Part shown: positions 813 to 38,746 of the stretch, piece after piece
Position numbering within the stretch: the stretch's first letter is position 1
How the letters are laid out: every line of letters starts with the position of its first letter
IMG/VR virus record: IMGVR_UViG_3300012012_002042
From: an uncultured virus (IMG/VR IMGVR_UViG_3300012012_002042)
Lineage: Duplodnaviria > Heunggongvirae > Uroviricota > Caudoviricetes
Reading direction: 5' to 3' (one strand)
Length of the DNA: 44,045 bases
The notes under the pieces: model-generated
The model's input: only the letters and a program-made list of their open reading frames with translations
Told to the model about the DNA's origin: nothing
Database searches by the model: none
Made by a program: the position numbers and the translations under genes

Positions 813-1466
813 ATGAACAAAGACGACGAAAGGGTGCTCTGCGTACCCACGGCAGATGTGGTGGAGATTATCGGAGAAAGGACGGGACTGATCGATCATC
901 CCGAGTTGCAAGAGAAGCTGGCTGATTTGGTGGTCCAGTCCTGTGCAACGAAGAAATTCGTGCGGCGCGGTGATTGTGAGAGGGATGAGAGCCTGCTGCA
1001 AATCATTCCATACGTGATTTACTGGCTGCGCGATTCCGGTGAGTTCCTGTCGTTCACGCGCGGATCCAAAATCCACGAGAACCGCCTGGCCAACAAGGTC
1101 AGCATCGGCATCGGCGGACACATGAACGAAGAGGATGGCGGGAATTATTTCGAGGCTCTGAAACGTGAACAGCGGGAGGAAGTTTCAGTTCCGCAGGAAC
1201 TCCTCGATACACAGTATCGCGTGAGCGGCTATCTGAGGCTCACCAATACTCCCGTGGATCGTGTCCATTTCGGCGTGGTGCATCTGGTGACAGTGCCGAG
1301 GGAAGCGCGTGAGAAGTTCCTGGTGCCTCCGTATGAGTCGGAAAATCTCACAGATTTGCAGTGGAGGACTGCGGAACAATTGCGCGCACTTTATTTGGTT
1401 GGGCGCCTTGAACCGTGGTCGGTGCAGTCGTTGAAAATGTTTCTCAGCATCGGACACGAGCAATGA
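813..1466 (+). CDS. NUDIX-family phosphoesterase (predicted)
   Basis: Motifs RGDCERDESLLQIIPY, R..KIHENRL..KVSIGIGGH, ALKREQREE, VDRVHFGVV and LEPWS match the predicted NUDIX phosphoesterase family. Confidence 0.8.
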   Translation: MNKDDERVLCVPTADVVEIIGERTGLIDHPELQEKLADLVVQSCATKKFVRRGDCERDESLLQIIPYVIYWLRDSGEFLSFTRGSKIHENRLANKVSIGIGGHMNEEDGGNYFEALKREQREEVSVPQELLDTQYRVSGYLRLTNTPVDRVHFGVVHLVTVPREAREKFLVPPYESENLTDLQWRTAEQLRALYLVGRLEPWSVQSLKMFLSIGHEQ

Positions 1467-3514
1467 TCGTGGAAAAAATGGGCGTGTCCTCAATGCGCGC
1501 CTTCATCGACAAGTGTGATCAGCAGTATTACAACGGCAGCTCGGATGTCCACGACAGTCTCTATGACCAGGTCAAGGCGCAGCTGAAAGCCTCCTGCCCG
1601 GATGACCCTCGCCTGACCCGCGTCGGCCCGCCGGTGATGGACTCCACACACGGTAAGATTCGACACTCGCATCCGATGGGATCGCTGGAGAACGTGCACA
1701 CGCCGGCGGAGTTCGACAAGTGGTGGGACAGCGTTCTGGCTTCCTACCCACACGCACGTGCGAATTGCAGTCAGAAGGCAGACGGCAGCAGCGTGTCCGT
1801 CAAATATGTGGACGGAGAATTGAAGCAGGGTCTGACGCGGGGCAATCACGAGATCGGAGACGACGTCACATCGAACATCGCCATGATCCCGAATGTGCCT
1901 CTGGTTGCCCATTTGGATGAGCGACCCTTCACCGGGTTCGTCCGTGGGGAAGTCGTGCTCACGACTGCGGCGTGGCTGAAGTTGGATCCGGATCAGACTT
2001 CGAATGCGCGCAATATGGGTAACGGAATGTTGATGAGGCATTCTGGTGAAGGCTGCGATCAGCTCTTCTTTGCTGCGTTCCGTATTTTCGACGCGGACGG
2101 AAATCCGATTGGAAAAACGGAGACCGAATCGCTTGCCCTGCTCAAGCGCATGGGATTCGCCACGGTGAGCGCTTTCGGGCCGATAGCGGAAGTTTCGGAC
2201 AGCGCGGCAGTGCTGGCTCAATACGAACTCTACGCGAACCCCGAATACAAATTCCGGGACAAGCTTCCATATGAGATCGACGGACTGGTGATCAAAGTGG
2301 ACCAGTATGACATCCAGGAGAAAATGGGGGAAGTGGGCAATTGTCCGAAGTCTCAGCGCGCATTCAAATTCCCACCCCGCGGCGCGCCTGGCGTTCTGTC
2401 GGATGTGAAGATGCAACTCGGACGATGCGGCGCCCTGACTCCCGTGGCCGTGTTCGACATCCCTGTGAAAGTGGGAGGTGTGTCGGTGTCCACCGCGACG
2501 CTGCACAACTTCAGCATCATCGCCGAGTTGGACATTGCCATTGGAGACACAGTGATGGTGAGTCGAATGGGAGACGTCATTCCAGGCGTGAGCGCGAAGG
2601 TGTCCAACGGCAAGGATCGCAAACTGATCATCAAGCCGAAGAAGTGTCCGTTCACTGGCGGTCAGGTCGGGCATTTGGAGAATGCGGACGGCACGAAGAG
2701 CAAGGTGTTGTTCTCGCTGAGCTCTGGTGATTGTCCAGCGGTGAAGATTGCACATCTGCGCAAATGGGTGGAGACGCTTGAGATCAAGGGGCTGGGGCCG
2801 GTGTATTTGGAGGCACTGTTTGAGACGATGGTGGATCCAGGACCGAAGTATGGTGTCATAGGCGGCGCGCCCGGTGTAATATCGCCAGCGGACCGCGCCG
2901 GAAGAATGCAACGACTGGTGGAGACGCCGGCCGATCTGTATCGGCTAAAGGTGGATTCGGAGTGCGACGCTATCAGCCCGAAGATCATGGAAAAGGTGGT
3001 TGCGAATATTCAGGCATCGAAAGAAATCGAATTGTCGAAATTCCTGGCGGCCCTCGGCGTGAATTCGCTGGGTCACGATCGCTCGATCAAAATCCGGCAG
3101 ACATTGCCTGGAGAGTTTGACCGGCTCGAGGATTGGTTCAGCGGGAAGTTGGAGAAGTATGCGAAGGAAGCGAAATTAACCGGCTTGATCCGAAAGATCG
3201 GACCCAGCCTCAAAGAACTCAAACCAGTCATGGCAGATCTGCTCAAAGCGGGCGTAAAAGTGAAAGAAGGAAAAGCGAAGGGTGCCGTTGTCGGTAATTG
3301 CTTCTGTCTCACCGGGGAATTCCAGCAGACGAAGGATTCCTACCACAGGGAGATTGAGGATGCGGGCATGTCATGGGCACCTCGGTTCACCAAACACGTG
3401 ACGCATGTGGTGTCGATGAATCCGCACTCGAATACGAAGAAGTGTCAGGAAGCTCGCAATCAGGGGTTGCCAATCATCGGGCTGGATGAACTGCAGAAGC
3501 TGCTCGGGAAATGA
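1463..3514 (+). CDS. ligA: NAD-dependent DNA ligase
   Basis: YYNG..D..YD domain Ia; HPMGSL; KADG adenylation motif; LTRGN; VRGEV; EIDGLVIK; AFKF; ATLHN; GDVIP; HhH (IKGLGP, ALGVNSLG); C-terminal BRCT (CLTG...K...A...G.PII). ATG overlaps the upstream TGA. Confidence 0.95.
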   Translation: MIVEKMGVSSMRAFIDKCDQQYYNGSSDVHDSLYDQVKAQLKASCPDDPRLTRVGPPVMDSTHGKIRHSHPMGSLENVHTPAEFDKWWDSVLASYPHARANCSQKADGSSVSVKYVDGELKQGLTRGNHEIGDDVTSNIAMIPNVPLVAHLDERPFTGFVRGEVVLTTAAWLKLDPDQTSNARNMGNGMLMRHSGEGCDQLFFAAFRIFDADGNPIGKTETESLALLKRMGFATVSAFGPIAEVSDSAAVLAQYELYANPEYKFRDKLPYEIDGLVIKVDQYDIQEKMGEVGNCPKSQRAFKFPPRGAPGVLSDVKMQLGRCGALTPVAVFDIPVKVGGVSVSTATLHNFSIIAELDIAIGDTVMVSRMGDVIPGVSAKVSNGKDRKLIIKPKKCPFTGGQVGHLENADGTKSKVLFSLSSGDCPAVKIAHLRKWVETLEIKGLGPVYLEALFETMVDPGPKYGVIGGAPGVISPADRAGRMQRLVETPADLYRLKVDSECDAISPKIMEKVVANIQASKEIELSKFLAALGVNSLGHDRSIKIRQTLPGEFDRLEDWFSGKLEKYAKEAKLTGLIRKIGPSLKELKPVMADLLKAGVKVKEGKAKGAVVGNCFCLTGEFQQTKDSYHREIEDAGMSWAPRFTKHVTHVVSMNPHSNTKKCQEARNQGLPIIGLDELQKLLGK

Positions 3515-5751: not shown

Positions 5752-7428
5752 ATGATCAAGAAGTCGTTCCGCAGCATCTTGCCAAACCCAGTCAGCATTC
5801 TCCGCGCCGAAGGTCAGGCGCGGCCCCAGCAGCAGCAGAACCGTGACGGACTCTCCCAGTTCGTCCTCTGCAAGGACAAAACCGAGTTCATCAGGCAGCA
5901 GACCGGGCAGGTCTGTTCCTACAAGTTGAACAGTTTTGTCGGAGACATGATCCAGATCGCGCAAGTGATCGGGATCGCGAGGATCCACGGTGGTGAGGTC
6001 GCCACCTTCGCGCCGTTTGACTTCGCCATTCCGGGCGGGCAGATGGCGAAGGCGTCGGGCCGTGTCGGCACTCGCGAGCTGCAGGTCCCGTCCGAATACG
6101 GCGGCGACGGGCAGCTCATCATGGCGTTCTCCTTGATCAGGACGCACTGTGAGCCCCTGCTGATCGTGCCGCGCAGCATCGGGCTCAACGGTGCCCCGCT
6201 GATTGGCGGAGGTCATCCGCTGGTGAATGACATCTCGCGGATCTCGCCGGAATGGGTGGACACCGTCCCCCATGAATTCTACCTCACGGCGGACGACGAG
6301 CGGCGCACCCGTGTGCGCAAGGTCGAAATGCAACCGGCCTACGCGCTGGCGAACCTCAAGGGCATGTTCGACATGCCCGGGTTCGCCGTCGGCGAGTTCA
6401 CCGGGGCCGGAGGTACCAACCTCTCCATGAGCCCCGACCTGTTCAAGCGGGTCCGCGGCATGATGGAAAAGGACCTCTGCGAAATGGGGAACCTGGGGTG
6501 GCTCGAGGAGTATCTGACCATGGCCTCCAAGGCCATGGCGGGGTGCCCGCTCGCCGCCGGCGGGCACGCCACCGACTTCTTCCCCAGGACGGGACGATTC
6601 GGACCAGGGTGCCGCAACATCGGCATCCCCGCCGATATGGTGTCCGAAGCCACGGAGGAGACATTCGGACTCGCCTCGGCGGGCGACGAGGTGCCCGTCA
6701 CGGACACCCACACAGAGGTGACTGTCACGGACACCGTCACCTCCGCTCCGGCGGCGGTGAATCTCATCCCGGCGCGCGCGCCGGTGAGCAAAGGCGAACG
6801 TCGCCGCCTCCAAAAAGAGCTCGAGCGTAAGGCGAAAGCGGCGAAAGCCGCCTCCGCCTCCGTGCCCCAGGACCCAATGGCGATCCTGAGCTCCCTGGAT
6901 GGCACCGGCACCCCCGCGCCGTCCGAGACGGAACAGCCCGCCGCCCCGGTCGAGCCCACCCCGGTGGAAGTCACCCCGGTCGAGCCCACCCCGGTGGAAG
7001 AGCCCGCCCCGGTGGAGACGCCCGCCCCGGTGGAAGTCGCAGCCCCGGTGGAAGTCGCAGCCCCGGTGGAAATGCCTGCCGCCCCCACAATGAAGGCAGC
7101 AGGGGACATCCCCGCGGATGAGGTGGAAGTCGCAGCCCCGGTGGAAATGCCTGCCGCCCCCACAATGAAGGCAGCAGGGGACATCCCCGCGGATGAGGTC
7201 GAGGTACCAGTCGCGGCGGCGGTGGAGGAAGATGCTACCTTCACGGTGCGCCAGAAGGGTCACCGGCCCGGACCCAATGACATGGGTCGGTCCTTCGAAG
7301 AAGTCCAGGCGCTCTTTGACGCCGGGGACTTCGACGACATGGGCACCTTCGAGGTGATGGCGTCAAGCAATCCCGGCAAGTGGCTCCACCCGGCCATGCT
7401 GGGCTTCGAGGCCGGCGCCGTGAAGTAG
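5752..7428 (+). CDS. GC-rich hypothetical protein with Pro/Glu/Ala/Val low-complexity C-terminal half
   Basis: 558 aa ORF with strongly G/C-ending codons, PVE-type repeats, its own upstream leader and downstream hairpins. Confidence 0.75.
   Translation: MIKKSFRSILPNPVSILRAEGQARPQQQQNRDGLSQFVLCKDKTEFIRQQTGQVCSYKLNSFVGDMIQIAQVIGIARIHGGEVATFAPFDFAIPGGQMAKASGRVGTRELQVPSEYGGDGQLIMAFSLIRTHCEPLLIVPRSIGLNGAPLIGGGHPLVNDISRISPEWVDTVPHEFYLTADDERRTRVRKVEMQPAYALANLKGMFDMPGFAVGEFTGAGGTNLSMSPDLFKRVRGMMEKDLCEMGNLGWLEEYLTMASKAMAGCPLAAGGHATDFFPRTGRFGPGCRNIGIPADMVSEATEETFGLASAGDEVPVTDTHTEVTVTDTVTSAPAAVNLIPARAPVSKGERRRLQKELERKAKAAKAASASVPQDPMAILSSLDGTGTPAPSETEQPAAPVEPTPVEVTPVEPTPVEEPAPVETPAPVEVAAPVEVAAPVEMPAAPTMKAAGDIPADEVEVAAPVEMPAAPTMKAAGDIPADEVEVPVAAAVEEDATFTVRQKGHRPGPNDMGRSFEEVQALFDAGDFDDMGTFEVMASSNPGKWLHPAMLGFEAGAVK
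7048..7197 (+). repeat. Perfect 75-bp tandem duplication (VEVAAPVEMPAAPTMKAAGDIPADE x2), preceded by short CCGGTGGA repeats
   Basis: 7048-7122 is identical to 7123-7197 and in frame. Confidence 0.9.
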
Positions 7429-10253: not shown

Positions 10254-12188
10254 ATGGGGAAAACCATCACAGCATTGAGGCAGGGGAAAATCGATGAAGT
10301 CGACGATGACGAGGTCGATTATGATCTGCTCACGACGGATCAGCTTTACGCTACGAACATCAACCATATTCCGATGCCGAACGCGGTGCAGGCTCCGCGC
10401 TCATTTTACGGAGCACGCTTCATCAGTCAGGCCTGGCCGCTGAAACATCGGGAAGCGCCGCTCGTTCAGAATCTGAGGACTGGTACGAATGAGTCCTACG
10501 ACGATATTTACGGAGAATTCGCCGGCGCGGTGCGGGCACGGGAAAATGGGGAAATCATCGAAGCCTCGCCAGATCGGATTATTTTCAAAGGCGAGTCCGG
10601 CAAAGAACACGTGCACGACCTTTACAAGGACTTCATGTTCAACCGTAAATCGAGCGTCACTCAGAAGCCTGTGGTGGAAGCCGGCATGAAGGTAAAAAGA
10701 GGAGACCGCCTTGCTGCATCGAATTACACCGATGACAAAGGGACTCTGGCCATGGGGACGAATGCGCGCGTGGCGCTGATCCCTTACAAGGGGTGGACCA
10801 TGGACGATGCCACAGCCATCTCGGACAGTTTCGCCAAGCGGTTGACTTCGGAAATGACGCACTCCCACAAGCAGGAGTTCGATGATGACGTCAAAGGTGG
10901 TGTGAATCATTTCATCTCCCTGTTCCCGACCGTGTTCAAGAAGGAGCAGATCACCAATTTGGATGAGCACGGAGTGGCCAAAGTCGGCACGATATTGAAC
11001 ACTGGAGATCCGATGGTGTTGGCCACGGCTCCTCGGGTGATGACTGCCCGTGATGCGAATGTCGGTAAGTTGTCGAGGACGTTGCAGCAGACGCGAAAGA
11101 ATGCATCTACCACGTGGGATTTCGAAGACCCGGGTGTGGTGACCGATGTGGCTCACACGAGGAAGGGCAGCAAAATCGTGGTGAAGTCGTATTCGCCGGC
11201 GAAGGTCGGGGATAAGATCGTGCTGCGCACTGGTCAGAAACAGATCATTTCCAAGATTCTACCGGACGATCAGATGCTACGCGGCGTGGACGGAAAGCCC
11301 GTGGATCTTCTGCTCAACCAGCTCGGGTTGCCGAGCCGGGTCAATGCATCCCTGCCGTATGAATTGGCGCTGGGGAAAATCGCCAGGAAGATGGGGCAGC
11401 CGTTCAAATTGAATGCCTTCAACGAGGAAGGCACCTCTCGCCAACGTCAAGTGGAAGACCTGCTCAAACAGCATGGCGTGAGTTTTGAGGAGGAAGTTTT
11501 CGATCCAGTTTCCAACACGAAAATCGATCGGCCAATTTCGGTGGGCGACGGCTACGTGATGAAGCTGGTGCACTCAGGGGAGTTGAAGAAGTCCTCCCGC
11601 GGCGTCGGATCCTACGACAGCGACATGCAACCTCTGCGTGGCGGCAGTGCTGGCGGACAATCGAAACGCGTATCAGGCCTTGAACAATCCGCTTATCTCG
11701 CGGCCGGCGCATATGCCACCCAGCGTGAAAATGCCACTCTGCGCGGCACCAGGAGCGATGAATATTGGCGGCAAGTTCGTGCAGGGGAAACTCCGGCGGA
11801 ACCAGGGGAGCCATTTGTGTGGAAGAAGTTTCAGGCGCTGCTTTGCGGGTCGGGAATGTTCGCCAAGAAGCTGGGCAAGGGGCGGCTCCGTCTCGGACCG
11901 ATGACCGACAAAATTCTGGCACAGCAAAATCCGGTCGAATTGAAAAATGGCGAGCTGGTGGATTTGAACAATTTTGAACCCATCAGCGGGGGATTATTCG
12001 ATCCGGCACTCGTCGGAGGTTCAAAGTGGGGTCGCATATCGCTCCCCAAATCGCTACCCAACCCGGCGTTCGAAAATAGCATCAGGACACTCCTATCGAT
12101 CACGAAGAAAGAATTTGATGGAATAATTTCTGGCAAAGTGCACATTGGCCCTGATGGTAAAGTCATCAAAGTCCGCGAAGAGAGATAA
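10254..12188 (+). CDS. Phage multisubunit RNA polymerase piece: beta C-terminal half fused to the beta-prime N-terminus
   Basis: Beta motifs QAWPL..EAPLV, LAMGTNARVA..PYKGWTMDDA..IS, GDKIVLRTGQK, LLNQLGLPSRVN, YVMKLVH and GGQSKRVSGLE..A..A.GA, followed by beta-prime-like GPMTD, GEL, EPISGGLFDP, WGRISLP. Confidence 0.9.
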   Translation: MGKTITALRQGKIDEVDDDEVDYDLLTTDQLYATNINHIPMPNAVQAPRSFYGARFISQAWPLKHREAPLVQNLRTGTNESYDDIYGEFAGAVRARENGEIIEASPDRIIFKGESGKEHVHDLYKDFMFNRKSSVTQKPVVEAGMKVKRGDRLAASNYTDDKGTLAMGTNARVALIPYKGWTMDDATAISDSFAKRLTSEMTHSHKQEFDDDVKGGVNHFISLFPTVFKKEQITNLDEHGVAKVGTILNTGDPMVLATAPRVMTARDANVGKLSRTLQQTRKNASTTWDFEDPGVVTDVAHTRKGSKIVVKSYSPAKVGDKIVLRTGQKQIISKILPDDQMLRGVDGKPVDLLLNQLGLPSRVNASLPYELALGKIARKMGQPFKLNAFNEEGTSRQRQVEDLLKQHGVSFEEEVFDPVSNTKIDRPISVGDGYVMKLVHSGELKKSSRGVGSYDSDMQPLRGGSAGGQSKRVSGLEQSAYLAAGAYATQRENATLRGTRSDEYWRQVRAGETPAEPGEPFVWKKFQALLCGSGMFAKKLGKGRLRLGPMTDKILAQQNPVELKNGELVDLNNFEPISGGLFDPALVGGSKWGRISLPKSLPNPAFENSIRTLLSITKKEFDGIISGKVHIGPDGKVIKVREER

Positions 12189-15327: not shown

Positions 15328-16434
15328 ATGAAAGCAACCGTATCGAAAAATCTGATGGTCAGCGCGCTGGGAACATTGAACAAGGCATTCGCCAAACAGC
15401 GAAGTTCTCTGCCGGTTCTGAACCACGTGAATATTCAAGTGGGAGCGGAGGGGTTTACCCTGACCCGCACAGACTTGGACATGATGGTGATTGTGAAATG
15501 TCCAGCGACCGTGCAGGACGACTGGCGTGGTGATTTCTGTGTCCCGGCTCAGAAGATGGAACAGGTCATCGCCAGCATGCCAGGTGACACAGTGGAAATG
15601 GAAATGGAGCGTCTTACAGTCAGGTTCCGCAGCGAGAAATATTATGTCGAGATGTGTATCCTGCCTGGTGATGAATTCCCGGTGACTTCTGCGTCCGTTA
15701 TGGATGGGATTCACTTTCAGGTTGCGGCGGATGTTCTGCACCAGAGCCTTTCCCGTGTGAGTCCCGCTGTGGGAGATAGCGCGATATCCCACAACGGCGT
15801 GTGGTTTTCATTCCGTAATTCCAAACTGAATCTGTATGCCATGGATGCACGCCGCTGCCATGCGGAGAATAACGTGTTGTCGTCAATTGACGCTGCAAAT
15901 AATGACACGCTGATCCGAGAGGATCGTGTGAAAGCGTTTCAGATCGCCCTCGCCCTCGCGTCTGGAGATGTCGAGTTGATCGTTTCCGATACTTTCATCG
16001 TGTTGTGCACAGCGGATGTGACCGTGGCTTCTCGGGGTATGCGATTAGGGATGCCAGGGTTTGACAGAATCTTGGCGAAAGGTCATGTCACAGATTCTCT
16101 GCATGTGGATCCGACCGTCCTGGCCGAGGCCCTGAAGCGGGTCATGCTGATCGCCCCGGTGGACAAGCCTAGGGTGAAATTGGCTGTCGTGCGTGGAAGT
16201 AACTACTTATCCCTGACGTGTGAGAACGCCAATGTGGGTGACGCCCTCGAACGCGTGCCGATTAAGGAGTGGCAGGGGAATGATTTGCACATTACCCTCA
16301 ATGCACGATACTTGCTGGATGCTGTGCGGGTGGTTGACAAATTGCAAATGGTGAAGATCGATCTCAGCGGCCAGGAACCCGTTCATATTTCCGCAGATGA
16401 TTACCACGCTGTGATTGCCAGCATTCGCCAATGA
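15328..16434 (+). CDS. dnaN: DNA polymerase III beta sliding clamp homolog
   Basis: 368 aa; MKATVSK..., LPVLNHVNI, LTRTDLD, FCVPA, DEFP, AMDARR, LNARYLLDA, VIASIR C-terminus, all matching the DnaN pattern. Confidence 0.9.
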   Translation: MKATVSKNLMVSALGTLNKAFAKQRSSLPVLNHVNIQVGAEGFTLTRTDLDMMVIVKCPATVQDDWRGDFCVPAQKMEQVIASMPGDTVEMEMERLTVRFRSEKYYVEMCILPGDEFPVTSASVMDGIHFQVAADVLHQSLSRVSPAVGDSAISHNGVWFSFRNSKLNLYAMDARRCHAENNVLSSIDAANNDTLIREDRVKAFQIALALASGDVELIVSDTFIVLCTADVTVASRGMRLGMPGFDRILAKGHVTDSLHVDPTVLAEALKRVMLIAPVDKPRVKLAVVRGSNYLSLTCENANVGDALERVPIKEWQGNDLHITLNARYLLDAVRVVDKLQMVKIDLSGQEPVHISADDYHAVIASIRQ

Positions 16435-18898: not shown

Positions 18899-20992
18899 AT
18901 GATCACAATTCAACCGCCGGCCGAGATCAAAGGCCACGTATCGCAGAAAATGATCCACATGATGGATCGGGTATTTAACGGAAGTCTGGAAACATGCATC
19001 GTGGAAATCATCCAGAATGCACGACGCGCCAAGGCCACCCATATCGACGTCACCGCCACCTACGTGGCCGACTGCGGCAATGGCGCGCACCTGGTGCTCA
19101 AATTCCATGACAATGGCATTGGACTCGCCAATCCCCAAATGCTGGTGGAAGTGGCCGAGTCTTCGTGGACGCCGGACGTGACCTCAGTGGAAGATCCAGG
19201 TGGTCAGGGATTCTATGCTTTGATCACAGCCGCGACGGACGCCGGCGTGGAAGTGTGCTCTCGTGATTGGCAAGCGTTCATCTCGCGCGCTGTGGCGATG
19301 GGGAGTGTCGGCACTGCACCCATTTACGGAAGGGGTCCCATCGAGGGCACCAGTTTCGAATTCACCGTCAAGGTGCCGGAGAAATTCACCACCAGATATG
19401 GATACTCCTCGCACTGGGATAACGACCCGAAGGCACCCAATCCTCCGGAGGCAATCAAGGCTTTGCAGGGACATATCCACGAAGTGAGCGCGGTGGCTGG
19501 AATTACCATCTCGTTCAACGGGCGTCATCTTCCGTGTTTTGACTTCCTGACCGGAGCCATTGCAGTCACGGAATACCGTGGAGTGCGAGTGGGGATTTTC
19601 AGCCAGCGTATGAATTACGGCTTTGATGACTCAATACTCCCGTCTGAATACAAGTACTGGTGGCAGCCCAACAATGGTAACCCATTGCGAGAGAGGATTA
19701 ATTTCTTCGGATGTCACCCGCACACGCATACTGACGACTGTCTTCCGGAGTTGGAGTTTCTCGGGGAGAATGGGAAAATTGGCTATATGCTCAAATGGGA
19801 TATTCTTACCACAGAAGCTGTGAAGATGACACTACCACAACGGGATCACATCAAACGGTCTGTGGAAGTGGATGACTTGCTGAGATTCTCGAAGGATTTT
19901 CTGATCCGCACCTTCATGACACGCCTGGACGGAAAGCATCGCATGCGATTCACCAAGTGGAAGAGCATCAAGGATTGGGCGCCGGACGTGGAGATTCCTG
20001 AGTCTGTACCATATTTGGATCACTGGTATATCGATGACCAGAAGGATTGCGGCGGCGGTAACCTATGGCCCGAACGTCCTTCGGAATTCAAAGCGCCATA
20101 CAGCGCACTGAACAACATGCCGAAAGACGTGACCGTGCTGGTATTCCCGAATACGGATAATCGCAATATGCTGGCGTTTCATCTGCTGCTAGGCCTGTGC
20201 TGCGCTGTGGATTCTGACGCGGCACAGAGTGGTTACACAGAACCGCCCAAAGACGGAATATTCANNNNNNNNNNNNNNNNNNNNNNNNNNNNNNNNNNNN
20301 NCATTGCTGGAAAAGACTACGCGGTGTTTGAAGGAGACTCATCGAGTATCGGATATTCCTGGTATGACAATCTGACGTTTCTGACCGACGAGCGCAACAT
20401 TGTGGAGGTGCGTGCGACGAAGCGCGGGATGAAAGGCAAGATGTGTTTTGAGATCACAGGGGACGCACTGGAAGATACTGGTAATATGGAAGTCTGGGAG
20501 ACCGCGAAGGTGGACAAGATATTCCTGACATTCAAGGTGCCGGGGAAATTTGAGATGGAGCTACAACTCCCGTTTGTGTTGTCAATGACCGAGGATGAAG
20601 GCGCCAGCTGTAATGGCATGGACTGCTGCGGTGATCTGGTTTGGACACCAGGCGCGGAGAAGTGGGAGGACTTCATTTACGCACGTATCTGGAATCTGAT
20701 CGGGTGTTTTGATGGCGATCACGACGAATCTGCTTCTGAAGAGGCCTCTGGAAATGTTTACGATTACCTGCGTTCAGTATTTCACGGTCGCGAATCCCTG
20801 ATGACCAAGCGGATGGAGGAAGTCGCTGGCAAAGTGGTGCGGTATCTGAATGATGAGGCCCTGGGCACCGTTCCAAAGTCTGCCATCTTCAGGATTACGG
20901 AAAACAAGAAAAAGGTAAACAGGTGGGATCCTGCTGTTATTGTGAAGTGGGAAGTGACTCTGAAGAGTGGTAAAAAATTGAAATCCAAATGA
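18899..20992 (+). CDS. GHKL (HATPase_c/MutL/Hsp90-like) ATPase domain protein
   Basis: EIIQNARRAKAT (N box), HDNGIGL (G1), DPGGQGFYAL (G2), GTSFEF. Spans a 37-N gap at 20265-20301, so frame continuity is assumed. Confidence 0.8.
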   Translation: MITIQPPAEIKGHVSQKMIHMMDRVFNGSLETCIVEIIQNARRAKATHIDVTATYVADCGNGAHLVLKFHDNGIGLANPQMLVEVAESSWTPDVTSVEDPGGQGFYALITAATDAGVEVCSRDWQAFISRAVAMGSVGTAPIYGRGPIEGTSFEFTVKVPEKFTTRYGYSSHWDNDPKAPNPPEAIKALQGHIHEVSAVAGITISFNGRHLPCFDFLTGAIAVTEYRGVRVGIFSQRMNYGFDDSILPSEYKYWWQPNNGNPLRERINFFGCHPHTHTDDCLPELEFLGENGKIGYMLKWDILTTEAVKMTLPQRDHIKRSVEVDDLLRFSKDFLIRTFMTRLDGKHRMRFTKWKSIKDWAPDVEIPESVPYLDHWYIDDQKDCGGGNLWPERPSEFKAPYSALNNMPKDVTVLVFPNTDNRNMLAFHLLLGLCCAVDSDAAQSGYTEPPKDGIFXXXXXXXXXXXXXIAGKDYAVFEGDSSSIGYSWYDNLTFLTDERNIVEVRATKRGMKGKMCFEITGDALEDTGNMEVWETAKVDKIFLTFKVPGKFEMELQLPFVLSMTEDEGASCNGMDCCGDLVWTPGAEKWEDFIYARIWNLIGCFDGDHDESASEEASGNVYDYLRSVFHGRESLMTKRMEEVAGKVVRYLNDEALGTVPKSAIFRITENKKKVNRWDPAVIVKWEVTLKSGKKLKSK

Positions 20993-23935: not shown

Positions 23936-24216
23936 TGGACCTGACGAAATGCCCGAGCTGCAGAGGCCCTATAACACTGACGAGCGGTGAAAGCACTCTA
24001 CCTGAGAGTCGGCTGTGTTTGCAGTGTGCTGAAAAGTTACCAGGCTGGGCATACGAACTCTTGCAGGACGGACGCCAGCTGCTGCAAGCGATGAACGCGG
24101 ATCCCAGCACACAGCTACCGAAGTCGAGAGTGCATGATTTGATCGAAAGCATTCTCCTCCGCGTCGTTATCCGGCGACGTATGACGCAAGCTGAAGCCGA
24201 TGAACTGGACGATTGA
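23935..24216 (+). CDS. Small Zn-finger protein
   Basis: CPSC...CLQC; TGATG overlap. Confidence 0.55.
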   Translation: MDLTKCPSCRGPITLTSGESTLPESRLCLQCAEKLPGWAYELLQDGRQLLQAMNADPSTQLPKSRVHDLIESILLRVVIRRRMTQAEADELDD

Positions 24217-25366
24217 GACCCCTCCTGAGATTGAAGCCTTGCTCGCTGCCAGAGCCCCTGTGGCAGTCGGCGTCAGTGGCGGCAAGGACTCCGTAGCGTG
24301 CGTCCTGGCCGTGGCAGAGTATCTCCGTGAGGCTGGACATAAAGGACCATCACTCCTGGTTCATGCAGACCTTGGAATGGTCGAGTGGCAAGACTCAGGC
24401 CCCGCGTGCAAACGCCTGAGTCACTATCTGCAGGCCCGAGGGCCTGAGTTCAAATACCCGATCTCATGGGGATCAGCGGCGTCCTGGGTCGGGGATAAAC
24501 ATGGAGATTGGGTTCCGAATTGGCAGCTCCACACAGTCAGGCGTGCTGCTGGCGGTATGATGGAACGCTGGGAGAGCCGCTGGGCATCTTCCCAGCGCCG
24601 CTACGAGAGCCTGGAGTGTGTGAAGCTCATCCTGCCATGGTCCACACCGTCCATGCGTTTCTGCACCTCAGAATTGAAGTCAGCGCCGATCGCCAATTTC
24701 CTGAAGAAGATGTTTCCAAAACAGAAGGTGATTTCCGTGACTGGTATTCGAGCTGACGAATCCCCGAACCGGGCGAAGATGCCAGTGGCGAAACCGAATC
24801 CGCGGTTGCATCCTGGCAGCCTGGATTGGAACCCGATCCTGAAATGGCCTGTGCAGGCTGTGTGGAATAAAATAAAGCAGCACGGTTTGCCTCCTCACGA
24901 GGCTTACGGCACGTTCGGATCTTCCCGTGTGAGCTGCGCATTCTGCATCATGTCCAAGGCGGATGATTTGAGGGCTGCGCTGAGCGATCCTCGGAACATG
25001 GAGATTTACCGGCGCATGTGCATCCTCGAGCAAATCAGTGGCTTTGCATTTCAGCAGGGCAAATGGCTGAGTGACCTTGCACCCGAGCCGATTGCGAGCC
25101 AGTGGAAACAATCGATTCTCGTTTCCAAGGAGAAGGCGGCAAAGCGAGAGGCGATTGAGAAGCGGATACCGAAGGACTTGGAATTCACGAAGGGCTGGCC
25201 GTTGCGGATGCCGACTCTGGATGAGGCGGTGATCATCGCCAAAGTTCGGGCAGAAATATCCATTCTGCAGGGGATCACGCCCAGGTTCACGACTCCCATT
25301 GAGGTGTTAAAGCGTTACAAGGAATTGATGGATTTGAAGAAACTCAAAGAATTGAAAAATAAATGA
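24200..25366 (+). CDS. Phosphoadenosine phosphosulfate (PAPS) reductase family protein
   Basis: VSGGKDS PP-loop, HADLG.VEW, RFCTSELK, GIRADES.NRA, PILKW, HEAY..G.SRVSCAFCI. Confidence 0.9.
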   Translation: MNWTIETPPEIEALLAARAPVAVGVSGGKDSVACVLAVAEYLREAGHKGPSLLVHADLGMVEWQDSGPACKRLSHYLQARGPEFKYPISWGSAASWVGDKHGDWVPNWQLHTVRRAAGGMMERWESRWASSQRRYESLECVKLILPWSTPSMRFCTSELKSAPIANFLKKMFPKQKVISVTGIRADESPNRAKMPVAKPNPRLHPGSLDWNPILKWPVQAVWNKIKQHGLPPHEAYGTFGSSRVSCAFCIMSKADDLRAALSDPRNMEIYRRMCILEQISGFAFQQGKWLSDLAPEPIASQWKQSILVSKEKAAKREAIEKRIPKDLEFTKGWPLRMPTLDEAVIIAKVRAEISILQGITPRFTTPIEVLKRYKELMDLKKLKELKNK

Positions 25367-27826: not shown

Positions 27827-28891
27827 AAAACCCAGCCCCGGATGTAATTGAACACCTTAAACAAATAATTCATGACGAAGCCGAAAAAAGNNNNNNNNNN
27901 NNNNNNNNNNNNNNNNNNNNNNNNNNNNNNNNNNNNNNNNNNNNNNNNNNNNNNNNNNNNNNNNNNNNNNNNNNNNNNNNNNNNNNNNNNNNNNNNNNNN
28001 NNNNNNNNNNNNNNNNNNNNNNNNNNNNNNNNNNNNNNNNNNNNNNNNNNNNNNNNNNNNNNNNNNNNNNNNNNNNNNNNNNNNNNNNNNNNNNNNNNNN
28101 NNNNNNNNNNNNNNNNNNNNNNNNNNNNNNNNNNNNNNNNNNNNNNNNNNNNNNNNNNNNNNNNNNNNNNNNNNNNNNNNNNNNNNNNNNNNNNNNNNNN
28201 NNNNNNNNNNNNNNNNNNNNNNNNNNNNNNNNNNNNNNNNNNNNNNNNNNNNNNNNNNNNNNNNNNNNNNNNNNNNNNNNNNNNNNNNNNNNNNNNNNNN
28301 NNNNNNNNNNNNNNNNNNNNNNNNNNNNNNNNNNNNNNNNNNNNNNNNNNNNNNNNNNNNNNNNNNNNNNNNNNNNNNNNNNNNNNNNNNNNNNNNNNNN
28401 NNNNNNNNNNNNNNNNNNNNNNNNNNNNNNNNNNNNNNNNNNNNNNNNNNNNNNNNNNNNNNNNNNNNNNNNNNNNNNNNNNNNNNNNNNNNNNNNNNNN
28501 NNNNNNNNNNNNNNNNNNNNNNNNNNNNNNNNNNNNNNNNNNNNNNNTTCAGAACATTGGGTGGCACCGTATTCGGAATCGGACACGTGTCCAAATTGCG
28601 CGCTGAAAAATGTGCCGCCGTTCACCGCGCAATGAGTGAACCCGCCGATAAAAAAGATATTCAAAGCATGAAAAAAACAATTCAGATTGGAAGCGAGGAT
28701 TGGAACTCCCATGAGCCGAAGTTGGATCGGTAAAGATGCTGCGGTTCTCGTGAAACAGAAAGACCTGAGAAAGCTGTTGGATTACAATCAGCCTGGAGAG
28801 GAACGGCATTATGCGGAATCGTGTGATGAAAAATCCGCCAGAGGGCATATCATCCACACCATCCGGGCACTTCGTAAAAACCTCGACGCCG

Positions 28892-34038: not shown

Positions 34039-35987
34039 TTGGCTGAAACGCAGAGTCACGATCGACATGAGCGGGGTCACTGAACATGACCTGGAGACTG
34101 CATTCGAGGAGGCAGTGAAGCTTTTGAAAGAAGGCTACCTCTCAGGCCTGAATGGAAACGACACGGGCAATTTCACATTCAAAACCGAGACTCCCGATGA
34201 GTAAGAAAATTCGGTTTAGCACTCTGGTTCGGGATTACGGACCCGTGCAGCATGCGTTGGCCATGAGGCCGAAGGCTTGGAGGAAGGCGTGGGACGAGGG
34301 CAGGACTGCCACCGTGTATCACGCCGACGATGGTGACTGGTGTGCCCCGGTGATTGCCCTTGTGCGCAGAGCTGGATTTGTGAATACGATCTGCAAAATC
34401 GCCTGGGCGAAACCGTTACCGGATGACGTGACGGAAATCATTGGCATGCGGGATAATCCGGAAGCCTGGGATCTGTGTCACCAGTCGCACCGATGAAACC
34501 GTTCTACGTTCATATCACGGATCCTTCTTTCCGTGAGGATTCCGGATATTTCTATCAAGTCCGTGGATGGCCTACAGCGGCGCGTCAGCGTGGACACTTC
34601 ATTGATGATTGGGAGGCGGCGATGGCTGCGTGCAAGAAGCATCACCCTGACGGCTGGAACGTCACAGACGTAATTAAGTTAATGTGCCGATGGAAATGGC
34701 TGATGAAAGCCTGTGATTTCGTAGTCATCCATTACTGACACATGGTCGCACTATTCTGGACGTTCGTTATGCTGGGAGGTTTGTTTATTTTAACCGCAAC
34801 ATTCTGCAAATTATGACACGCGCAATATCCGATACCGAGAGGTGCCTGTGGTACAAGATGGCCTTGGTGAATTTGAAGCAGGCTGTCCTGCAGGTCGGCG
34901 CCGGCCATGGTGTGAAGCCGGAAGATGTCATCAAGGATTACGGCGGTTACGACCTTGACGCATGGATTCCGCAATTCAAGGACGACGCGCCCGAGTTCGA
35001 CGAGTTCCTTTGGAATATGGCCAGGGAGCATGAGGTTCCGAATGAGCAAAACGAGGTGTCGTGTGCCATGCTGCAATATTGGCACCATTACGAGGCGGCT
35101 GTTCGCGGATGGCCTGCCACGTTGACTGGGTCTGCGGCGAACATCAAGACGGCGTGGGGCGATTTGGCCTTGGCCATTGCCTACTCTCAGGAATGAACGC
35201 AGAGCAGCGTCAGGCCGCCGCGTTGGCTGAGTATTTGGTCTACCTGCGATCCCTGCCAAGTATTGTGACCGCGGAATTGTCCCATGTGGATGAGGAGGGC
35301 GTCGCCCATATTCTCGTGACGCAGTATCGGGAATTCAAGTTTGGAGAAATCACACTGACAGTCGAAAAATGAAATCGAAACCACCCCATCCGGTATTTGC
35401 TGAGGGAGATGAAGTGACCTGGACATCTCAATCACAAGGCTTCGAAAAGAGGAAGCATGGTAAAATCGTGCGTGTCGTAGCCAGCGGGATTGGTCCCTCT
35501 GTCCCGCAAGGAATGCGCGTGCAGGGAGCAGGCCTGGGTGGTGCGAGAAATCATCAGAGCTACCTGGTGGGCATCGGCAATATACTCTACTGGCCCCGCG
35601 TAACGCTTCTGCGGCCGTATCTCGGATCCAAAAAGCCTGCTGAGTGATGCGTCACGTGGTTTGGCTGAAATATAATTCGGCACAGGCCCAGGTTCACCAG
35701 GAGCCTACGGGCGTGTGGCAGACAAACGGAGATGGCCCGATGGGGCTGAAAACTGCGCAAAGAATTGCGAGGGAGATTCGCGAGCACTGGCCCGGGATAC
35801 AGACGAAAGTTTTACCAGAAAACCAAACACCAGAATGAAAGAAATCATTGGCGAATATGTCAAGCAGCAGTGGACCGGGAGAAAGCAGGATCATGCCGAG
35901 GAGATCCTGGATAACGGCTTGTCGATGGTAATTCCAGGGGACACACTCGTGAGGAAATTATTGATTGTGCTGCGATGTAGTTCGTGA
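34025..35987 (+). other. Run of small hypothetical ORFs: 34025-34204, 34197-34496, 34493-34738, 34813-35196, 35193-35372, 35369-35647, 35644-35838, 35835-35987
   Basis: Overlapping start/stop codons on the + strand. Confidence 0.5.
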
Positions 35988-36000
35988 GAATGCTCGCAAC

Positions 36001-36576
36001 ATGAGTAACGAGCAATTGGATTCAGACACGAAGGGTGGAGGGGAAGTGTATTTCTTCCATAATGGGGATTACGCGAAGATTGGTTATTCCACGCAGGAGC
36101 TGCGGAAAAGACTTTGGCAGGCTCATGTGTGGTCACCACACGAACTGACCATTGTCGGATGGATATGGCACGAATTCCCCGATGTGCTCGAAAAGACGGT
36201 GCATCTCCATTTGGCTCACGCCTGGATGCGTAAAGTGACAACAGGGAATGGGGAGTGGTTTAATATCACGGTAGAAGAGTGTAAAAAAACAATTAGCAAT
36301 TATAAAAATGGCAAAATCATCTGTATCAGCGGCTGGGGTTCGGCACATAGCACGGCTTACCGGCATCCGGCCCATCTTGTTCGACCGCTACGGGGGAACG
36401 AACACGACAAAATTGGACGACATGCAGAAAATGTATCTGAACGAAAACCTGGAATGTTGCATCCCAGTATTGAATGTGTTCAGTCTATTAAGCGCGATAA
36501 ACACGCCGTCGGTGGCGAAGCGTTTCTACGGGAAACAAGGCGCAAACCTCGGGATGATGGTTCAGGCGTTCGTTAA
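36001..36576 (+). CDS. T5orf172/MUG113 (GIY-YIG-like) domain protein; the part after ~36305 overlaps the next gene in another frame
   Basis: GEVYFF....YAKIGYS....KRL......SP..L.IV......LEKTVHLHL.......GEWF is the T5orf172 pattern. Confidence 0.8.
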   Translation: MSNEQLDSDTKGGGEVYFFHNGDYAKIGYSTQELRKRLWQAHVWSPHELTIVGWIWHEFPDVLEKTVHLHLAHAWMRKVTTGNGEWFNITVEECKKTISNYKNGKIICISGWGSAHSTAYRHPAHLVRPLRGNEHDKIGRHAENVSERKPGMLHPSIECVQSIKRDKHAVGGEAFLRETRRKPRDDGSGVR

Positions 36577-36889
36577 CATTGAAGCGTACAAAACGGAGGA
36601 TTCCATGCTCGCGACGATCTGTGACGATAAAGGGAAAATCTACACGCAATCCGACCCGCGCATCACAGTGATTGGACACGTAGCGCGGTTGAAGGGTGGG
36701 ATTCCAAATCCGAAATCCCGTCCGATGATTCCGACTGGATGGAGCGTGACGTTCGTGTTCGAGATTCAGGAGAATCCCACAGTAAATTCTGAGACACTGA
36801 TCAAGATGGTGGAACAGGGCGGGATCATCGGCCTTGGAACATTCCGCCCGATCTTCGGCCGCTATCGGGTAGAGTGGCTGAGCGCGTAG
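36308..36889 (+). CDS. Stand-alone RAMP/Cas7-like RNA-binding protein (putative Vipr-type effector)
   Basis: 193 aa. N-terminal strand RLTGIRPILF, CIP..NV.S.L helix start, RPMI..GWSVTFVFEI and a C-terminal Gly-rich loop GGIIGLGTFRPIFGRYRV, as in RAMP proteins. Directly precedes the GGC-NN array. Confidence 0.8.
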   Translation: MAKSSVSAAGVRHIARLTGIRPILFDRYGGTNTTKLDDMQKMYLNENLECCIPVLNVFSLLSAINTPSVAKRFYGKQGANLGMMVQAFVNIEAYKTEDSMLATICDDKGKIYTQSDPRITVIGHVARLKGGIPNPKSRPMIPTGWSVTFVFEIQENPTVNSETLIKMVEQGGIIGLGTFRPIFGRYRVEWLSA

Positions 36890-36899
36890 AGATTTAGAC

Positions 36900-37242
36900 G
36901 GCTAGGCGCGGCCGGGCTCGGCAGGGCTGGGCTCGGCAGGGCTGGGCGCGGCAGGGCAAGGCAAGGCAAACACGAGCACCTCGGGCGGATTTGAACAGAG
37001 GTTACAATTTTCTTGGCAGGGCAGGGCGAGGCACGGCTCGGCGAGGCATGGCTCGGCAAGGCAAGGCAAGGCAAGGCAAGGCAACCACGAGCACCTCGGG
37101 CGGATTTGAACAGAGGTTACAATTTTGTTGGCGGGGCAAGGCAGGGCATGGCTCGGCGCGGCTAGGCATGGCTCGGCAAGGCGGGGCAAGGCAACCACGA
37201 GAATCCCGGGCGGATTTGAACAGGGATATTATTTTCTTGGCA
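36900..37242 (+). ncRNA. Array of putative guide RNAs: (GGC-NN)13-14 tracts separated by a conserved 44-45 nt hairpin linker; at least 3 complete units, truncated by a gap
   Basis: Tracts at 36900-36969, 37015-37084 and 37130-37194; linkers at 36970-37014, 37085-37129 and 37195-37238; a 4th tract starts GGCA at 37239. The linker stem covaries. Confidence 0.85.
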
Positions 37243-37948
37243 NNNNNNNNNNNNNNNNNNNNNNNNNNNNNNNNNNNNNNNNNNNNNNNNNNNNNNNNNN
37301 NNNNNNNNNNNNNNNNNNNNNNNNNNNNNNNNNNNNNNNNNNNNNNNNNNNNNNNNNNNNNNNNNNNNNNNNNNNNNNNNNNNNNNNNNNNNNNNNNNNN
37401 NNNNNNNNNNNNNNNNNNNNNNNNNNNNNNNNNNNNNNNNNNNNNNNNNNNNNNNNNNNNNNNNNNNNNNNNNNNNNNNNNNNNNNNNNNNNNNNNNNNN
37501 NNNNNNNNNNNNNNNNNNNNNNNNNNNNNNNNNNNNNNNNNNNNNNNNNNNNNNNNNNNNNNNNNNNNNNNNNNNNNNNNNNNNNNNNNNNNNNNNNNNN
37601 NNNNNNNNNNNNNNNNNNNNNNNNNNNNNNNNNNNNNNNNNNNNNNNNNNNNNNNNNNNNNNNNNNNNNNNNNNNNNNNNNNNNNNNNNNNNNNNNNNNN
37701 NNNNNNNNNNNNNNNNNNNNNNNNNNNNNNNNNNNNNNNNNNNNNNNNNNNNNNNNNNNNNNNNNNNNNNNNNNNNNNNNNNNNNNNNNNNNNNNNNNNN
37801 NNNNNNNNNNNNNNNNNNNNNNNNNNNNNNNNNNNNNNNNNNNNNNNNNNNNNNNNNNNNNNNNNNNNNNNNNNNNNNNNNNNNNNNNNNNNNNNNNNNN
37901 NNNNNNNNNNNNNNNNNNNNNNNNNNNNNNNNNNNNNNNNNNNNNNNN

Positions 37949-38746
37949 ACAAAAATCGCAAAGACGCAGCAAACTGCAACATTGGAATGGATCGGGCCCG
38001 CCGTGGCCATGAAGTATATGGAGAAGAATAAGAACCCGAGGGCGGTCCGTCAGAGTCACGTCGACAAATACGTGCGGATCATCCAGGCCGGCGAATTTCG
38101 CACTGCCCAGAGCATCGGATTCGACCTGAATGGGTATCTTCGGGACGGGCAACACCGCTTGCTGGCCATCATCGCGACTGACACACCTGTTCAGATGTGG
38201 GTGATTCGAAATATGAGTGAGGATGAGGTTCTGGCCATTGATCAAGGCGAAAAACGGAACAATTCCGTCATTCTGAGTGTGGATACTCGTGCAGGCGCAG
38301 TCATCACCTTGGCTTCTACCATAATGGCTGGCTCCAGCCGTGCGCCGCTCACAAGTGAGTTGATGTGCGTGCGTGACGCCATTTTGGATCCGTGTATGGA
38401 TTTGCTGCACGGTTGCACGGCGGCGCCGAAGCATATCTCGTCACGTTTCGTGCGCTTGGCGGCCGTCCTGAATATGGTGAAATCAACGAAGCATTACGCT
38501 TATGTGAAAACGCAATATCCTGCGCTGGTTCGCAGCGACTTCGATGTGCAATCGAAGCCTATTCAGTATTTGTACAAACGGCTCACGATGTCCGTCAGGA
38601 GTATTACGAAAAACTTCCAGTTCATGACGGCATATCTTGCATTCGATCCAACAAAGTCCGAGCATAAGACCATCGTCATCAAGGACCCGACCAAGCTGTC
38701 CTCGGATATTCAAACGGAGCTTCTGGATCTAGCCACACGCGCGTAA
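37949..38746 (+). CDS. ParB-like / DGQHR-motif domain protein (5' end lies in the gap)
   Basis: N.NPRAVRQSHVDKY...I..GEF...SIGFD.NG.LRDGQHRLLAII....ID.G..R. The frame is open back to the gap edge at 37949. Confidence 0.8.
   Translation, partial: TKIAKTQQTATLEWIGPAVAMKYMEKNKNPRAVRQSHVDKYVRIIQAGEFRTAQSIGFDLNGYLRDGQHRLLAIIATDTPVQMWVIRNMSEDEVLAIDQGEKRNNSVILSVDTRAGAVITLASTIMAGSSRAPLTSELMCVRDAILDPCMDLLHGCTAAPKHISSRFVRLAAVLNMVKSTKHYAYVKTQYPALVRSDFDVQSKPIQYLYKRLTMSVRSITKNFQFMTAYLAFDPTKSEHKTIVIKDPTKLSSDIQTELLDLATRA

Follow-up and report, generated by a model that had tools for sequence, protein, structure and literature searches.

VIPR (Viral Interference Programmable Repeat) systems, the subject of three bioRxiv preprints from 2026, are described as combining a small phage-encoded RAMP protein, Vipr, with RNAs named vrRNAs and as lacking a CRISPR array (bioRxiv 10.64898/2026.04.26.720920). 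According to the same preprint, a vrRNA consists of 9 to 16 GGY/NN repeats and, at its 3' end, a structured tail that does not vary, targets are read by the NN pairs with one base skipped, and the systems reside mostly in phages and usually include one accessory gene (vap). A second preprint describes a filament in which each repeat is occupied by one Vipr protomer that sequesters GGY and presents NN to the DNA, and reports that the Vipr protein of the Escherichia phage SUSP1 (VIPR type II; PDB 36pp) contacts GGY through residues of its thumb and G-loop, the contacts comprising H17, R138, D177, W178, R179 and others (bioRxiv 10.64898/2026.04.26.720927). A third preprint extends the description to solo vrRNAs and to guides directed against the vipr genes of rivals (bioRxiv 10.64898/2026.10.15.759431). 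In this study, we closely examined a locus of this kind in a 44,045-nucleotide (nt) stretch of DNA from an uncultured virus (IMG/VR record IMGVR_UViG_3300012012_002042), here called the window in its full length. A preliminary description, made from the letters alone, had noted a gene for a Cas7-like protein in front of a pentamer array and had likened the pair to VIPR, a likeness that the three preprints bear out.

With a probability of about 0.9, we assign the locus to VIPR and its carrier to the uncultured freshwater phages, probably as a large one, with array function, silencing and the like extrapolated from SUSP1.

A vipr gene followed by tandem GGC-NN repeat units

The vipr gene is an open reading frame (ORF) at positions 36308 to 36889 of the plus strand, which encodes a protein of 193 amino acids with the C-terminal sequence EQGGIIGLGTFRPIFGRYRVEWLSA and ends with a stop codon at 36887 to 36889. 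The ORF was found again as first reported, and its RAMP-type glycine-rich loop (G-loop) was located at residues 171 to 185, preceded by a thumb hairpin at about residues 120 to 141. The DNA after the gene harbors at least three tandem units, each consisting of 13 or 14 GGC-NN pentamers and a conserved hairpin tail, and the first pentamer lies 11 nt past the vipr stop codon. Unit 1 (36900 to 37014, plus strand, as for all units) contains 14 pentamers (36900 to 36969) with the NN pairs TA GC CG TC AG TG TC AG TG GC AG AA AA AA and a 45-nt tail (36970 to 37014). Unit 2 (37015 to 37129) likewise has 14 pentamers (37015 to 37084), with the NN pairs AG AG GA AC TC GA AT TC and then six AA, and a 45-nt tail (37085 to 37129), while unit 3 (37130 to 37238) has 13 pentamers (37130 to 37194) and a 44-nt tail (37195 to 37238). 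A fourth repeat tract opens with the letters GGCA at 37239 to 37242, and the array runs on into a stretch of 706 bases that reads N (37243 to 37948); two further N stretches are found in the window at 20265 to 20301 and 27891 to 28547.

GGC is kept in all 41 pentamers of the three visible tracts (14, 14 and 13 upon re-counting), in line with the strict 5-nt register reported to begin at 36900. The linkers described earlier as near-identical, 44 to 45 nt long and recurring every 110 to 115 nt correspond to the three tails, which are near-identical to one another, and the unit starts are spaced 115, 115 and 109 nt apart. Tandem Repeats Finder assigned the array a period of 115 with 2.6 copies and 84% matches. 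Outside the array, the longest GGY-NN runs on either strand of the window had three units, and there were three of these; 200 shuffles of the window yielded no run of five GGCNN units. In the region from 35300 to 37242, a promoter scan yielded no promoter-like site, and a terminator scan yielded two terminator-like sites, both on the minus strand and within the expectation from shuffles.

The encoded protein is a Vipr-type RAMP protein

A search for relatives of the 193-residue protein revealed a sequence family of 218 proteins at E ≤ 0.001, with a best match of 98% identity. When a profile of 44 family members was searched against the PDB sequences with hmmsearch, a single match was returned, 36pp_D, the "SUSP1 Vipr protein" (E = 4e-5). 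Profile alignment with the SUSP1 Vipr protein (KT454805.2) using hhalign gave a probability of 95.1% (E = 3e-8) over 52 C-terminal columns. In this alignment, the thumb arginine R138 of SUSP1, an essential residue, corresponds to R138 of the window protein and the G-loop arginine R179 to R180, the glycines of the GxGxG loop are conserved, and W178 of SUSP1 is replaced by F179, which is still aromatic. The N-terminal residues that hold GGY in SUSP1, H17, K33, E71 and M72, fall outside the alignable C-terminal stretch. Both proteins are small RAMP proteins (about 195 amino acids in SUSP1) with a G-loop of the form G.G..RP.FGR.

The window protein matched no family in Pfam, including the Pfam RAMP families, nor in NCBIfam or PADLOC, and its sole match in PHROGs was phrog_4652, a family of unknown function (E = 5e-8). 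The RAMP fold expected for the product of 36308 to 36889 was found, with Cas7/Csm3 as the nearest solved fold besides Vipr. Identity to the Cas7/Csm3 backbone subunits of class 1 systems (9g9b_D, 6ifn_F and 6nbt_B) is 7 to 17%, and the two protein types also differ in how they hold RNA, with a 5-nt period and three buried bases in VIPR versus 6 nt and one flipped base in Cas7 (bioRxiv 10.64898/2026.04.26.720927). Taken together, the product of 36308 to 36889 is a Vipr-type RAMP protein.

Repeat tracts and hairpin tails are conserved in the family

For comparison, we assembled 38 loci from IMG/VR and the cultured Burkholderia phage vB_E436, in total 39, of which three were dropped as partial matches of 29 residues that have no tracts. 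The coupling of gene and pentamer array extends to these homologs: tracts of at least five GG(C)-NN units adjoin the gene on the same strand in 34 of the 36 remaining loci, the exceptions being L024 and L027. Among the 1,029 units of 78 distinct family tracts, 997 have C as their third base, which is mostly T in SUSP1, and the two NN positions show entropies of 1.84 and 1.96 bits; GG at the first two pentamer positions was demanded by the search pattern, and its conservation is not an independent result. As in SUSP1, the system is phage-encoded and places several tandem GGY-NN units in a row, each with a conserved structured 3' tail, and the 13 to 14 repeats per unit lie within the published range of 9 to 16.

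A feature that is unlike the SUSP1 system is the presence of trailing GGCAA units. At least one terminal GGCAA unit, and up to six, was found in 51 of the 78 family tracts, and the tracts of the window end in three (36955 to 36969), six (37055 to 37084) and two (37185 to 37194) such units. Instead of guide sequence, they may represent padding that fixes the filament length, or they may belong to the tail.

The tails vary between clades, each forming a hairpin. Alignment of 22 distinct tails from the clade of the window revealed an invariant ACGAG, a freely changing stem of 5 bp and a loop of the form GGGCGG(N0-5)AACA, whereas the SUSP1 tail has a pseudoknot sequence. The stem positions are paired in 98.2% of cells, with compensatory changes in four of the five pairs; the stem score was reached by none of 500 shuffles, and controls in which the partner strand was slid paired in 15 to 41%. 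Within the window itself, the stem of unit 3 reads ATCCC/GGGAT versus ACCTC/GAGGT in units 1 and 2. The stem of unit 3 has changed on both sides in a way that keeps the pairing, which is direct evidence for use of the plus strand as RNA. Folding of single sequences placed the vrRNA units no better than shuffles, except for unit 1 (z = -2.1), and the structure of the tail therefore rests on covariation. An Rfam search of 36700 to 37242 gave nothing above noise and no hammerhead; ribozyme arrays have been shown for types I and V of the seven published VIPR types (I to VII).

A scan of IMG/VR for the tail motif returned 122 loci, of which 11 carried a repeat tract before the motif, mostly on contigs that were already in our set. 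As the motif specifies 16 bases, the other loci were discarded as chance matches. In several relatives (L003 2376 to 2420, L005 1042 to 1085 and L011 3637 to 3680, among others), the last vrRNA after vipr ends with a long hairpin rich in GC and a run of T behind it, which is terminator-like and unlike the internal tails.

Furthermore, a contig of 956 nt from a lake sequencing run is 97.5% identical to the window over 36029 to 36896 (22 differences in 868 bases), a region that spans vipr and the upstream T5orf172 gene described below, and diverges from the array of the window after 36896. As weak evidence from short assembled contigs, this fits conserved proteins with turnover of the guides.

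A T5orf172 gene upstream of vipr and a frame running into vipr

Directly upstream of vipr lies an ORF at 36001 to 36576 (plus strand), a candidate accessory (vap-like) gene by Pfam match and neighborhood. It starts with ATG at 36001, or alternatively with TTG at 35965, and encodes a T5orf172/MUG113 domain at about residues 14 to 105 (PF10544, E = 1e-8; PF13455, E = 2e-8). The ORF stays open through the vipr ATG and ends with a stop at 36574 to 36576, so that its C-terminal extension is encoded in the -1 frame of the first 88 codons of vipr. Of 35 loci tested, 31 have this domain immediately in front of vipr, and the T5orf172 (GIY-YIG-like) gene is likely the accessory protein gene of this clade. 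SUSP1 also has one small accessory gene, vap1, but there it lies downstream and has no Pfam match, whereas here the accessory gene is upstream and overlaps vipr.

Several lines of evidence suggest that the overlap is under selection as coding sequence. In all 36 loci (L001 to L036), the first 56 to 110 codons of vipr (median 74) are free of stops in the -1 frame, the remainder of vipr beyond this open stretch contains 1 to 14 stops in the -1 frame, and the upstream ORF is without exception still open at the vipr ATG. The proportion of synonymous codon shuffles that matched the observed open length ranged from 0 of 2,000 up to 0.14, with values below 0.05 for 12 of the 20 loci; in SUSP1 vipr, the -1 frame closes after 17 codons (synonymous-shuffle P = 0.34). 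Among 20 aligned genes, vipr shows 0.31 synonymous differences per comparable pair in residues 1 to 74 versus 0.53 in residues 92 to 193 (Mann-Whitney p = 4e-9), and the rise coincides with the end of the -1 frame. In L001 and L035, two loci without a T5orf172 domain, its place is filled by a short ORF in the -1 frame that has its own ATG, located 14 nt (L001) and 4 nt (L035) ahead of the vipr start. From these sequence patterns, the -1 frame over the 5' part of vipr is probably dual coding (overprinting); the alternative is a constraint at the RNA level on the 5' half of vipr.

An AlphaFold2 model of the T5orf172 protein has pLDDT values of 74 to 91 in the domain and below 50 in the extension, which is thus predicted to be disordered. 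Prediction of a complex between Vipr and the T5orf172 extension returned a score of 0.00, which speaks neither for nor against binding. We consider it an even call that the accessory gene of this clade is overprinted on vipr and yields a conserved, probably disordered and basic peptide that could, for example, tether the nuclease-like domain to the Vipr filament or RNA.

No fused T5orf172-Vipr protein was found in a search for proteins of 339 to 2,000 amino acids, and none of the 120 near-length family matches listed was of fusion size, the longest having 228 amino acids. A run of seven A (36283 to 36289) inside the T5orf172 ORF precedes the vipr ATG by 19 nt, and between this run and the ATG the vipr frame has no stop; a slip dropping one base at this run would fuse T5orf172 and Vipr. 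Neither T5orf172 nor GIY is mentioned in the main text or supplement PDF of the preprint describing the VIPR types, and its main text does not mention an overlapping frame (bioRxiv 10.64898/2026.04.26.720920).

The T5orf172 gene also raises the possibility that the system destroys its target, with the T5orf172 protein as an active GIY-YIG-type nuclease that is recruited to the Vipr-vrRNA filament. Target destruction has been proposed in preprint form for the nuclease-bearing VIPR types III to V, and we regard this version as possible though rather unlikely compared with a silencing system of the SUSP1 kind.

The only full-length relative of the window protein in 50,697 deposited phage genomes is XRX04321.1 of the Burkholderia phage vB_E436 (PQ789831.1), with 36% identity (E = 2e-29). 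In the region L001 3898 to 4606, this phage has, like the window, a pentamer tract next to the gene, here a GG(C/A)-NN tract of 15 units positioned directly upstream (L001 3898 to 3972), and a -1 frame that is open for 86 codons into the vipr homolog. It differs in that the upstream tract is single and has A as the third base in 5 of 15 units, in that no T5orf172 domain was found upstream, and in that an ORF of 451 amino acids without a Pfam match follows with overlapping stop and start. In the record of vB_E436, the Vipr homolog is entered as a hypothetical protein and none of these features is annotated.

Proposed mode of action and search for targets

By analogy with the SUSP1 work, transcription of the array would occur either together with vipr or after it, and cleavage would release vrRNAs of about 110 to 115 nt. 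One Vipr protomer would then occupy each pentamer, with GGC buried and NN presented, which would build a helical filament of 13 to 14 subunits. Along double-stranded DNA, each NN pair would read two bases and the next base would be skipped, giving a footprint of about 40 bp, and binding would silence genes of a competing mobile element. The upstream T5orf172 protein may bind or cut the bound DNA.

To search for targets, guides were converted by the published rule of skipping 1 nt, and large collections were scanned for exact patterns only. Within the window, no self-target was found within three mismatches and none reached an NN match of 80%; the best self-matches (62 to 75%) equaled those of order-shuffled guides. 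The lack of a self-target of at least 80% NN match in the window agrees with the systems of the preprint (bioRxiv 10.64898/2026.04.26.720920). A comparison of 63 guides with the window and with every locus, at a threshold of 85% NN match, gave no match, against a mean of 1.0 for order-shuffled guides. Guide 1 gave one exact match of 22 bases in the metagenome collection (L041 1501 to 1532), located in a porin gene on an enterobacterial-looking chromosome fragment, where the skipped base falls on codon position 2 and not on the wobble position. Guide 1 also gave one exact 22-base match in a metagenome-assembled genome of the Planctomycetota (L042 1501 to 1532), in an intergenic region between convergent ORFs. 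By our own arithmetic and assuming equal base frequencies, about 0.07 matches are expected by chance in the genome collection of 596 Gb; both guide 1 matches are probably due to chance. Planctomycetota are a plausible host phylum in freshwater.

Several observations weigh against the assignment of the locus to VIPR. Similarity to the validated SUSP1 Vipr is limited to the C-terminal quarter, a plain tblastn comparison with the SUSP1 gene (KT454805.2) gave a weak match (E = 0.03), and D177 of SUSP1, which contacts G1 and is essential, is replaced by Thr178 in the window protein. The evidence from the tail covers a hairpin and not a pseudoknot as in SUSP1, and the tail sequence is unlike that of SUSP1. 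The N stretch at 37243 to 37948 conceals how far the array extends and perhaps where the next gene begins, and no RNA run is among the sequencing runs listed as containing the sequence of the locus. Finally, the exact 1-nt-skip patterns of the three guides yielded 0, 0 and 0 matches in IMG/VR, the matches in L041 and L042 are unrelated to each other and leave the trailing AA units unmatched, and no natural target was found for the guides of the window.

Genomic context and alternative readings of the repeats

All readable genes of the window lie on the plus strand and are of phage-type content. They include genes for an NAD-dependent DNA ligase (1415 to 3514), an RNA polymerase beta-like protein with Rpb2 domain 6 (10254 to 12188), a sliding clamp (15328 to 16434), a PAPS-reductase-like protein (24200 to 25366) and a Gp88 family protein. 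A Vipr protein 98% identical to that of the window occurs on a contig of 183 kb, and the stretch itself was found in lake and freshwater metagenomes. The ligase, polymerase-like, clamp and PAPS-reductase-like genes, together with the 183-kb contig and its near-identical Vipr, suggest that the phage is large and encodes transcription machinery of its own. Positions 6944 to 7199 hold tandem repeats of 15 to 75 nt, with one 75-nt unit repeated twice at 100%, inside an ORF of 558 amino acids (5752 to 7428) without a family match.

An ORF for a ParB-like protein (37982 to 38746, plus strand; phrog_5931, E = 4e-30, and a weak match to phrog_1033, E = 9e-5) directly follows the N stretch after the array; it is not a conserved neighbor of vipr in other loci. 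Short repeats arranged in tandem typically mark partition sites, and the pentamer tracts could act as DNA to which proteins bind, for example as iterons or as a centromere recognized by the ParB-like protein. We consider this very improbable, since the tracts travel with vipr on the same strand in 34 of the 36 loci whereas the downstream genes differ between loci, since the covariation in the tail stem preserves base pairing and points to RNA, and since the NN positions show near-maximal entropy, unlike the consensus of a binding site.

In agreement with the preliminary description, which had reported no cas1, cas2, cas3, cas5, cas6 or cas8 and no repeat-spacer CRISPR, none of the 61 plus-strand ORFs (21 + 40) in the visible sequence matched a cas-family Pfam profile, and no repeat-spacer array was present there. 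Unlike class 1 CRISPR-Cas systems, the locus thus has no CRISPR array and no Cas5, Cas6, Cas10 or Cas1-2 in the visible sequence, and its guides are genome-encoded repeats, whereas those of CRISPR-Cas are acquired spacers. A degenerate or minimal CRISPR-Cas remnant, that is, a solo Cas7 with a decayed array, is the least probable reading. Cas7/Csm3 is indeed the nearest solved fold apart from Vipr, but repeat-spacer architecture and any other cas gene among the 61 ORFs are absent from the visible sequence, the protein has no Pfam RAMP match and its sole sequence-level match in PDB is Vipr and not Cas7, and the 5-nt register is strictly held in hundreds of family units.

Implications for VIPR systems

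VIPR is a newly described way for RNA to read DNA, in which two bases are read and one is skipped, and it has been proposed to be older than CRISPR. As a VIPR system, the locus in the window would extend this principle to a clade of uncultured freshwater phages with strict GGC repeats, a different hairpin tail and a nuclease-like T5orf172 partner. The clade adds about 80 natural guide tracts (78 distinct) and a tail model backed by covariation that is usable for finding arrays. New here is also the conserved T5orf172 gene upstream of vipr, with its frame running into vipr. If the overlapping frame is real, it would be a rare case of dual coding inside the gene of an RNA-guided effector, and it would point to a further protein of the system, one that is left out when only two components are reconstituted, as in the published work.

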